Source of the DNA: Escherichia coli
GTDB taxonomy: Bacteria; Pseudomonadota; Gammaproteobacteria; Enterobacterales; Enterobacteriaceae
Strand: one strand, 5' to 3'
NCBI RefSeq assembly: GCF_048403405.1
Contig: NZ_CP183129.1
DNA: 64,000 nucleotides
Shown: one piece after another, positions 20,357 to 26,159 of the stretch
Layout: the number at the start of each line of letters is the position of its first letter
Position numbering within the stretch: the stretch's first letter is position 1
Notes under the pieces: model-generated
What the model was told of the DNA's origin: nothing
Seen by the model: only the letters and a program-made list of their open reading frames with translations
Database searches by the model: none
Program-made: the position numbers and the translations under genes

Positions 20357-21391
20357 ATGAGTAACGCGATTACGATGGGGATATTTTGGCATTTGATCGG
20401 CGCGGCCAGTGCAGCCTGTTTTTACGCTCCGTTCAAAAAAGTAAAAAAATGGTCATGGGAAACCATGTGGTCAGTTGGTGGGATTGTTTCGTGGATTATT
20501 CTGCCGTGGGCCATCAGCGCCCTGTTACTACCGAATTTCTGGGCGTATTACAGCTCGTTTAGTCTCTCTACGCTGCTGCCTGTTTTTCTGTTCGGCGCAA
20601 TGTGGGGGATTGGTAATATCAACTACGGCCTGACCATGCGTTATCTCGGCATGTCGATGGGGATTGGTATCGCCATTGGTATCACGTTGATTGTTGGTAC
20701 GCTGATGACGCCAATTATCAACGGCAATTTCGATGTGTTGATCAATACCGAAGGTGGACGCATGACATTGCTCGGCGTTCTGGTGGCGCTGATTGGTGTA
20801 GGGATTGTGACTCGCGCCGGGCAGTTGAAAGAGCGCAAGATGGGCATTAAAGCCGAAGAGTTCAACCTGAAAAAAGGGCTGGTGCTGGCGGTGATGTGCG
20901 GCATTTTCTCTGCCGGAATGTCCTTTGCGATGAACGCCGCAAAACCGATGCATGAAGCCGCTGCCGCACTGGGCGTCGATCCACTGTATGTCGCTCTGCC
21001 AAGCTATGTTGTCATCATGGGCGGCGGCGCGATCATTAACCTCGGTTTCTGCTTCATTCGTCTGGCAAAAGTGAAGGATTTGTCGCTAAAAGCCGACTTC
21101 TCGCTGGCAAAACCGCTGATCATTCACAATGTGTTACTCTCAGCACTGGGCGGGTTGATGTGGTATCTGCAATTCTTTTTCTATGCCTGGGGCCACGCGC
21201 GTATTCCGGCGCAGTATGACTACATCAGCTGGATGCTGCATATGAGCTTCTATGTATTGTGCGGCGGTATCGTCGGGCTGGTGCTCAAAGAGTGGAACAA
21301 TGCAGGTCGCCGTCCGGTAACGGTGTTGAGCCTCGGTTGTGTAGTGATTATTGTCGCCGCCAACATCGTCGGCATGGGCATGGCGAATTAA
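20357..21391 (+). CDS. rhaT: L-rhamnose-proton symporter RhaT (344 aa)
   Basis: 10-TM DMT-type permease; translation [29 protein letters not shown]... Confidence 0.95.
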
Positions 21392-22236
21392 TCTTTCTGC
21401 GAATTGAGATGACGCCACTGGCTGGGCGTCATCCCGGTTTCCCGGGTAAACACCACCGAAAAATAGTTACTATCTTCAAAGCCACATTCGGTTGAAATAT
21501 CACTGATTAACAGGCGGCTATGCTGGAGAAGATATTGCGCATGACACACTCTGACCTGCCGCAGATATTGATTGATGGTCATGCCAGTCTGCTGGCGAAA
21601 TTGCTGACGCAAAACGCGCTCACTGCACGATGCCTCATCACAAAATTTATCCAGCGCAAAGGGACTTTTCAGGCTGGCCGCCAGCCGGGTAATCAGCTTA
21701 TCCAGCAACGTTTCGCTGGATGTTGGCGGCAACGAATCGCTGGTGTAACGATGGCGATTCAGCAACATCACCAACTGCCCGAACAGCAACTCTGCCATTT
21801 CGTTAGCAAACGGCACATGCTGACTACTTTCATGCTCAAGTTGACCGATAACCTGCCGCGCCTGCGCCATCCCCACGCTACCTAAGCGCCAGTGTGGCTG
21901 CCCTGCGCTGGCACTAAATCCCGGAATCGCCCCCTGCCAGTCAAGATTCAGCTTCAGCCGCTCCGGGCAATAAATAATATTCTGCAAAACCAGATCGTTA
22001 ACGGAAGCGTAGGAGTGTTTATCGTCAGCATGAATGTAAAAGAGATCGCCACGGGTAATGCGATAAGGGCGATCGTTGAGTACATGCAGACCATTACCGC
22101 GCCAGACAATCACCAGCTCACAAAAATCATGTGTATGTTCGGCAAAGACATCTTGCGGATAACGGTCAGCCACAGCGACTGCCTGCTGGTCGCTGGCAAA
22201 AAAATCATCTTTGAGAAGTTTTAACTGATGCGCCAC
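21388..22236 (-). CDS. rhaR: AraC-family activator RhaR (282 aa, GTG start)
   Basis: Cupin plus AraC HTH; GTG at 22236 gives the 282-aa product starting [13 protein letters not shown]. Confidence 0.88.
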
Positions 22237-22309
22237 CGTGGCTACCTCGGCCAGAGAACGAAGTTGATTATTCGCAATATGGCGTACAAATACGTTGAGA
22301 AGATTCGCG

Positions 22310-23146
22310 TTATTGCAGAAAACCATCCCGTCCCTGACGAATATCACGCGGTGACCAGTTAAACTCTCGGCGAAAAAGCGTCGAAAAGTGGTTACTGTCG
22401 CTGAATCCGCAGCGATAGGCGATGTCAGTAACGCTGGCCTCGCTGTGGCGTAGCAGATGTCGGGCTTTCATCAGTCGCAGGCGGTTCAGGTAACGCTGAG
22501 GCGTCAGTCCCGTTTTCTGCTTAAGCTGCCGATGTAGCGTACGCAGCGAAAGAGAAAATTGATCCGCCACGGCATCCCAATTTACCTCATCGGCAAAATG
22601 GTCCTCCAGCCAGGCCAGAAGCAAGTTGAGACGTGACGCGCTGTTTTCCAGGTTCTCCTGCAAACTGCTTTTACGCAGCAAGAGCAGTAATTGCATAAAT
22701 AAGATCTCGCGACTGGCGGTCGAGGGTAAATCATTTTCCTCTTCCTGCTGTTCCATCTGTGCAACCAGCTGTCGCACCTGCTGCAACACGCTGTGGTTAA
22801 CGCGCCAGTGAGACGGATACTGCCCATCCAGCTCTTGTGGCAGCAACTGATTCAGCCCGGCGAGAAACTGAAATCGATCCGGCGAGCGATACAGCACATT
22901 GGTCAGACACAGATTATCGGTATGTTCATACAGATGCCGATCATGATCGCGTACGAAACAGACCGTGCCACCGGTGATGGTATAGGGCTGCCCATTAAAC
23001 ACATGAATACCCGTGCCATGTTCGACAATCACAATTTCATGAAAATCATGATGATGTTCAGGAAAATCCGCCTGCGGGAGCCGGGGTTCTATCGCCACGG
23101 ACGCGTTACCAGACGGAAAAAAATCCACACTATGTAATACGGTCAT
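22310..23146 (-). CDS. rhaS: AraC-family activator RhaS (278 aa)
   Basis: Translation [41 protein letters not shown]... matches RhaS. Confidence 0.95.

Positions 23147-26159
<3,013 letters not shown>

Follow-up and report, generated by a model that had tools for sequence, protein, structure and literature searches.

The tandem regulator genes rhaS and rhaR of Escherichia coli raise the question of where the second gene begins. In the stretch of DNA analysed here (64,000 nucleotides in length; hereafter the window) they are found on the minus strand, within the gene order sodA, rhaT (20357..21391, plus strand), rhaR and rhaS (minus strand), and rhaB and rhaA (plus strand). According to both the list of open reading frames (ORFs) and RefSeq, rhaS occupies positions 22310..23146; it encodes 278 aa from an ATG codon, ends with a TAA at 22312-22310, and its product matches the NCBIfam equivalog NF010028 over its full length (546.6 bits). 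For rhaR, three in-frame start codons come into consideration: the longest ORF, 21388..22347, begins with a GTG at 22345..22347 and would yield 319 aa, an ATG at 22324..22326 would yield 312 aa, and a GTG at 22234..22236 yields 282 aa (21388..22236 with the stop codon). The first two are located inside the 3' end of rhaS (an overlap that the initial annotation had correctly pointed out for the longest ORF), in a frame that differs from that of rhaS, and the third leaves a spacer of 73 nt between the two genes (22237..22309, minus strand). The start call determines if RhaR is treated as a protein of 282, 312 or 319 aa in modelling, residue numbering and cloning. It also bears on the coupling of the two genes, a point of the initial annotation that holds: with GTG 22236, no stop/start overlap exists through which translation of rhaR could be coupled to that of rhaS.

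We conclude with high confidence that rhaR starts at GUG 22236 by means of its own Shine-Dalgarno (SD) sequence, that the 73-nt spacer is non-coding, and that rhaR is not coupled to rhaS by overlap. Several complete E. coli genomes match the 2-kb query region at 100% identity, and this region is found at a coverage of at least 80% in 5408 of 5426 genomes. RefSeq places the same 73-nt gap on a 100%-identical genome, confirming the coordinates, and its records for the six E. coli genomes inspected all show an 849-nt rhaR together with this gap. The locus does not differ from the reference annotation of E. coli rhaSR, which has the same genes, the 282-aa RhaR, the GTG start and the 73-nt gap; a GTG start 73 nt after rhaS is already known from that annotation, and the finding is correct but ordinary.

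Comparison with related loci supports this start. Loci encoding 39 relatives of RhaR were fetched from one-genome-per-species contigs, of which the 34 enterobacterial ones were used, and four loci were added from Salmonella enterica, Enterobacter hormaechei, Citrobacter freundii and Superficieibacter, for a total of 38. At the position aligned to 22236, 27 of the 34 one-genome-per-species loci have GTG and four have TTG, the latter being of the Atlantibacter type (L022-L024 and L029); the three Budviciaceae loci carry an ATG one codon downstream of the aligned start. GTG is also found in Salmonella, E. hormaechei and Superficieibacter, bringing the count over all 38 loci to 30 GTG and 4 TTG codons, and C. 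freundii has a GTG-ATG tandem at this place (L048:1298-1303).

Upstream of the aligned start, an in-frame stop codon is found within 6-51 nt in 29 of 33 one-genome-per-species loci. Very often this stop is the TGA inside the motif tGAGGt at position -12, in which the T precedes the GAGG of the SD sequence. An in-frame stop is likewise present at -12 in Salmonella and C. freundii, at -33 in E. hormaechei and Superficieibacter, and at -12 (TGA) in a genome labelled E. coli E69, whose RhaR is 94% identical. Among the comparison loci, the frame is open back to 22347 only in the window and in a 99%-identical Escherichia sp.; in E. coli proper a C replaces the T of the TGA, and the distance between the SD and the start is longer by one base. 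The spacer itself measures 71, 72, 73, 74, 75 or 77 nt in the relatives, and 88-158 nt where it contains palindromic insertions. Since these length differences are not multiples of three, no frame crosses the spacer across the family.

Judging from these comparisons, the 37 extra codons that precede GTG 22236 (with starts at 22326 and 22347) encode no conserved N-terminal extension. By themselves, 37 additional open codons are unremarkable, as we roughly estimate that such a stretch would occur with a probability of about 0.17 by chance in random sequence. The upstream frame is open in every E. coli genome sampled; with an identity of at least 99% across the rhaS-rhaR junction in 4968 of 5417 genomes, E. 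coli population data vary too little to test the extension.

The initial annotation had proposed scoring of the SD sequence upstream of 22236, and such scoring favours the same codon. The motif GAGGU (22244..22248, minus strand), 7 nt 5' of the GTG, pairs with the 3' end of the 16S rRNA at -7.2 kcal/mol with a spacing of 6-7 nt. In all Enterobacteriaceae loci the aligned start is preceded by an SD-like motif of -5.4 to -10.8 kcal/mol, which in most of them is 5-9 nt away. The ATG of rhaS is preceded by an AGGAGG that reaches -10.3 kcal/mol. Because rhaR combines a GUG or UUG codon with a moderate SD, as opposed to the AUG and AGGAGG of rhaS, we infer that translation is less efficient for RhaR than for RhaS, with a lower rate per mRNA.

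Protein families and structures point to the same residue. [quoted passage not shown] The protein matches the NCBIfam models NF010025 (573.7 bits, cut-off 525) and NF010027 (565.3 bits, cut-off 384), each 282 positions long, which align to residues 39-318 and 39-319 of the longest ORF, respectively. Position 2 of the models corresponds to ORF residue 39, so that position 1 falls on residue 38, which is GTG 22236; nothing in the NCBIfam RhaR models corresponds to the 37-aa extension. The constructs used for the RhaR N-terminal domain in PDB 5U93 and 5U9E begin at ORF residues 38 (MAHQLKLL) and 40. Conservation of the start and its SD, the upstream stops, the family models, the crystal constructs and RefSeq thus agree on the 282-aa RhaR that the initial annotation had preferred.

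The ambiguity of the start is real in automatic annotation and resolved in curated sources. By exact look-up, versions of 282, 288, 312 and 319 aa of the same E. coli RhaR coexist in public collections, where the 312-aa form is found on at least 1000 contigs and the 319-aa form in one named entry only (GenBank). The representative of the 90%-identity cluster of RhaR is the 312-aa form, and cluster representatives outside E. coli are nearly all of 282 aa. The original K-12 entries used the 312-aa RhaR and were later corrected. As public databases still mix the forms, a clear comparative argument is useful housekeeping, although it changes no biology.

It is very unlikely that ATG 22326 serves in E. 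coli as the main start or as an additional one, producing a 312-aa RhaR whose first codons overlap the end of rhaS, stop codon included, and whose translation is coupled to rhaS. The open frame in all sampled E. coli and the many contigs with a 312-aa RhaR would fit such a start, as would the purine-rich AGGGACGGG before the ATG, which pairs with the 16S rRNA at -7.8 kcal/mol. This pairing, however, reaches right to the ATG, which is a poor spacing, and the extension is not conserved, being interrupted by stops or by frameshifting spacers in other genera and in 'E. coli' E69; it was moreover left out of the crystallised constructs, is unused by RefSeq and falls outside the RhaR family models. 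GTG 22347 can hardly be the start of a 319-aa RhaR: although it opens the longest ORF and is used by the one GenBank entry, it is without an SD (the best pairing is -3.0 kcal/mol at a spacing of 17 nt), it is situated within the coding sequence of rhaS, and its extension fails by the same comparative arguments as that of ATG 22326.

A further reading accepts GTG 22236 as the start, with its use depending substantially on ribosomes that terminate at rhaS, through long-range coupling or re-initiation that is possibly aided by a conserved block in the spacer (described below). We consider this improbable. All species with the block have it 0-1 nt past the rhaS stop, and a predicted spacer hairpin pairs the rhaR SD in Kluyvera (z -3.9), Silvania (z -1.3) and Leclercia (z -1.9; L006, L010 and L011), so that initiation could depend there on upstream translation. 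Against this, predictions for E. coli (z -0.1), Buttiauxella and RIT693 (z about 0) show no fold that sequesters the SD, none of the loci lacks a normal SD, and a distance of 73 nt, which grows to as much as 158 nt in other genera, far exceeds those typical of termination-reinitiation.

With the start at GUG 22236, expression of the pair would proceed as follows. rhaS and rhaR are transcribed together from the rhaSR promoter, as is established in the literature summarised in PMC9429829, and RNA-seq shows both to be induced by rhamnose. On the rhaSR mRNA, initiation at GUG 22236 would be driven by the GAGGU of rhaR itself, and the product would be the 282-aa AraC-family activator RhaR, translated independently of rhaS. 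Since the conserved start is placed 73 nt past the rhaS stop and has its own SD, the two genes are expected to lack overlap coupling; and because rhaR has an independent ribosome-binding site and a weak start codon, the RhaS:RhaR ratio would be set by two separate initiation regions instead.

This arrangement can be compared with two known classes of genes. Overlap-coupled pairs of the ATGA or TAATG type would resemble rhaSR only if the 312- or the 319-aa start were used, with overlaps of about 15-17 and 38 nt, respectively; the overlap that defines such pairs is absent when rhaR begins at its conserved start. Regulator genes with a non-AUG start, of which lacI with its GUG is an example, offer a closer likeness, as rhaR likewise uses GUG or UUG in nearly all sampled Enterobacteriaceae, together with an SD weaker than that of rhaS. 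This combination is consistent with low-level synthesis of the regulator. C. freundii and the Budviciaceae differ from this class in having an ATG, and since ATG is tolerated at the rhaR start of C. freundii, a weak start codon is not strictly selected for.

Strong purifying selection acts on the first ~50 nt of the 73-nt spacer, which is therefore more than neutral filler. Among 12 genus-level representatives, the first ~56 nt of the spacer show a mean identity of 74% with 28% invariant columns, as compared with 64% and 3% at the third-codon positions of rhaS. The conserved block, as delimited by alignment and by an nhmmer profile, spans 22260..22309 on the minus strand. Its consensus is CGCGRR-N5-TCAMCGTWTT, followed by T- and then A-tracts and by a RATAMT hexamer; in the window these parts are represented by CGCGAA (22304-22309), TCAAC (22294-22298), T-rich and A-rich tracts, and AATAAT (22267-22272). 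The centre of the half-sites is separated from the hexamer by 30 nt in 26 loci, by 31 nt in 4 and, as counted by hand, by 29 nt in Salmonella. The distance between the block and the rhaR start varies from 28 to 114 nt, as palindromic insertions are tolerated between the block and the SD.

These insertions are REP-like palindromes of 60-85 nt, of the GCCGGATG...CATCCGGC type, and are found in the spacers of Citrobacter, Salmonella, Atlantibacter and some Buttiauxella, always between the conserved block and the rhaR SD (L004:2405-2477, L022:2425-2458, L046 and L048).

The nhmmer profile of the block recovers 30 of the 34 one-genome-per-species loci, the copy in the window and the four added genera, with E values of 1e-7 to 1e-16; by this profile neither Citrobacter sp. 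R56 nor the Budviciaceae have the block, and no significant second copy is present in any locus or in the window. An origin of the block as a paralogue of the rhaSR/rhaBAD promoters was accordingly rejected, there being no second copy and the matches to the Buttiauxella rhaT leader being weak (E>3). The only other CGCGRR-N5-TCAMC pattern in the window, at 40327-40342 on the minus strand, is a chance occurrence within a 211-aa ORF of the opposite strand (39896..40531).

The block is the only part of this analysis that could lead somewhere new, as it is a selected element within a sugar regulon that ranks among the best studied, and it is also contained in rhamnose expression cassettes that are in wide use. 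Tentatively, and going by its sequence conservation, it might be an undescribed cis-regulatory element of the Enterobacteriaceae that sets the expression of RhaR independently of RhaS, for instance as a weak activator-dependent internal promoter or as a site of mRNA processing or translational control. Induction by rhamnose requires some basal RhaR before any RhaS has been made, and such an element would provide it. None of the specific forms considered, a CRP-type internal promoter, a RhaS half-site or a conserved RNA fold, is well supported for the block.

We regard it as unlikely that the block is an internal activator-dependent promoter with a rhaR transcript of its own, a reading compatible with the GTG start. 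The best fit of this kind would be a class II CRP promoter, with CGCGA-N6-TCAC centred ~41.5 bp upstream of the transcription start site and RATAMT as the -10 element. Its likeness to the class II CRP promoters galP1, sbmC and srlA (RegulonDB sites listed by Shimada 2011) consists of CRP-like half-sites, a -10-like hexamer and a fitting distance. The G and C that Shimada et al. name as key to the CRP box are among the invariant positions, left halves of the TGCGA form are found in listed -41.5 sites such as those of sbmC and srlA, the 29-31 nt from centre to hexamer fit the -41.5 geometry, the hexamer retains A2 and T6, and the spacing from the rhaR start is unconstrained, with the insertions placed downstream of the hexamer. 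The block differs from these promoters, however, in its low matrix score: with a CRP matrix built from 130 RegulonDB sites it reaches only 1.2-6.7 bits (3.8 in E. coli), corresponding to the 18-35th percentile of the listed sites and to ranks 6-68 of about 5800 positions per locus, and the top matches of the same matrix are the known rhaBAD -92.5, rhaSR -111.5 and rhaT -93.5 sites. Compared with TGTGA-N6-TCACA, the block matches 6-7 of 10 core positions, and each locus contains many equal chance matches. The invariant non-consensus positions C4 and C6 and the CGT after TCAC are unexplained by CRP, and the CRP peaks of genomic SELEX are found only at rhaBAD/rhaSR and rhaT/sodA, with none inside rhaSR.

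In a rhamnose RNA-seq table rhaS and rhaR are induced together, which weighs against such a promoter without discriminating between the readings; the supplements of Kim 2012 and of SMRT-Cappable-seq contain no rha entries. A scan for consensus sigma-70 promoters and terminators found nothing in the spacer, and the only terminator-like match (22341-22327) is inside the rhaS 3' end and at chance level.

Somewhat less unlikely, but still doubtful, is that the block acts at the RNA level, as a determinant of the processing or stability of the rhaS 3' end or as an AU-rich single-stranded platform for rhaR translation; this, too, is compatible with the GTG start. Its anchoring to the rhaS stop in all species while the distance to rhaR varies, the U-tracts, A-tracts and AAUAAU that it contains, and a conservation far above that of synonymous sites would all be in keeping with such a role. 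On the other hand, RNAalifold predicts no pairs over 17 spacers, no Rfam match is found at E<=1 over 21000-23600, and the invariant GC-rich CGCG and TCACCG are unexplained by an AU-rich platform. Single-sequence folds of the spacer are unexceptional in E. coli, Buttiauxella and RIT693, being significant only in Kluyvera and marginal in Leclercia.

A RhaS half-site of the rhaI2 type, conserved in the rhaBAD promoter as CTGTCAGT-N4-GAAGGT, was rejected as a general feature of the rhaS stop. With a half-site matrix from 12 genera, the site at the rhaS stop ranks third in only 3 genera, with 6-9 bits as compared with about 30 for true sites, and it scores negatively in the other nine, including E. 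coli. The sequence CAGTAACGCGAAGG resembles rhaI2 in three genera only, and its register is off by 1 nt in Buttiauxella.

Consensus sites for sigma-54, sigma-28, IHF, H-NS, marbox and FNR were compared with the block by eye, and none of them fits across genera. Small ORFs within the spacer, on whichever strand, were rejected as well, since the invariant columns are without three-base periodicity. An antisense ORF of 44 aa (22228..22362, plus strand), which covers the spacer and the rhaS 3' end, shows no coding conservation and is probably spurious.

Two minor features of the surrounding DNA were noted. In E. coli NCTC9064 (L045, 788-1540), an IS1 with an adjacent deletion has removed the interval from fdhD to the spacer, including rhaS; the deletion junction is just upstream of GAATAAT, and rhaR is intact. 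At the other end of rhaR, this gene (minus strand) and rhaT (plus strand) are convergent, and their stop codons share 4 nt (TTAA, 21388-21391); the rhaR/rhaT pair is a candidate convergent 'excludon' according to PMC12288877.
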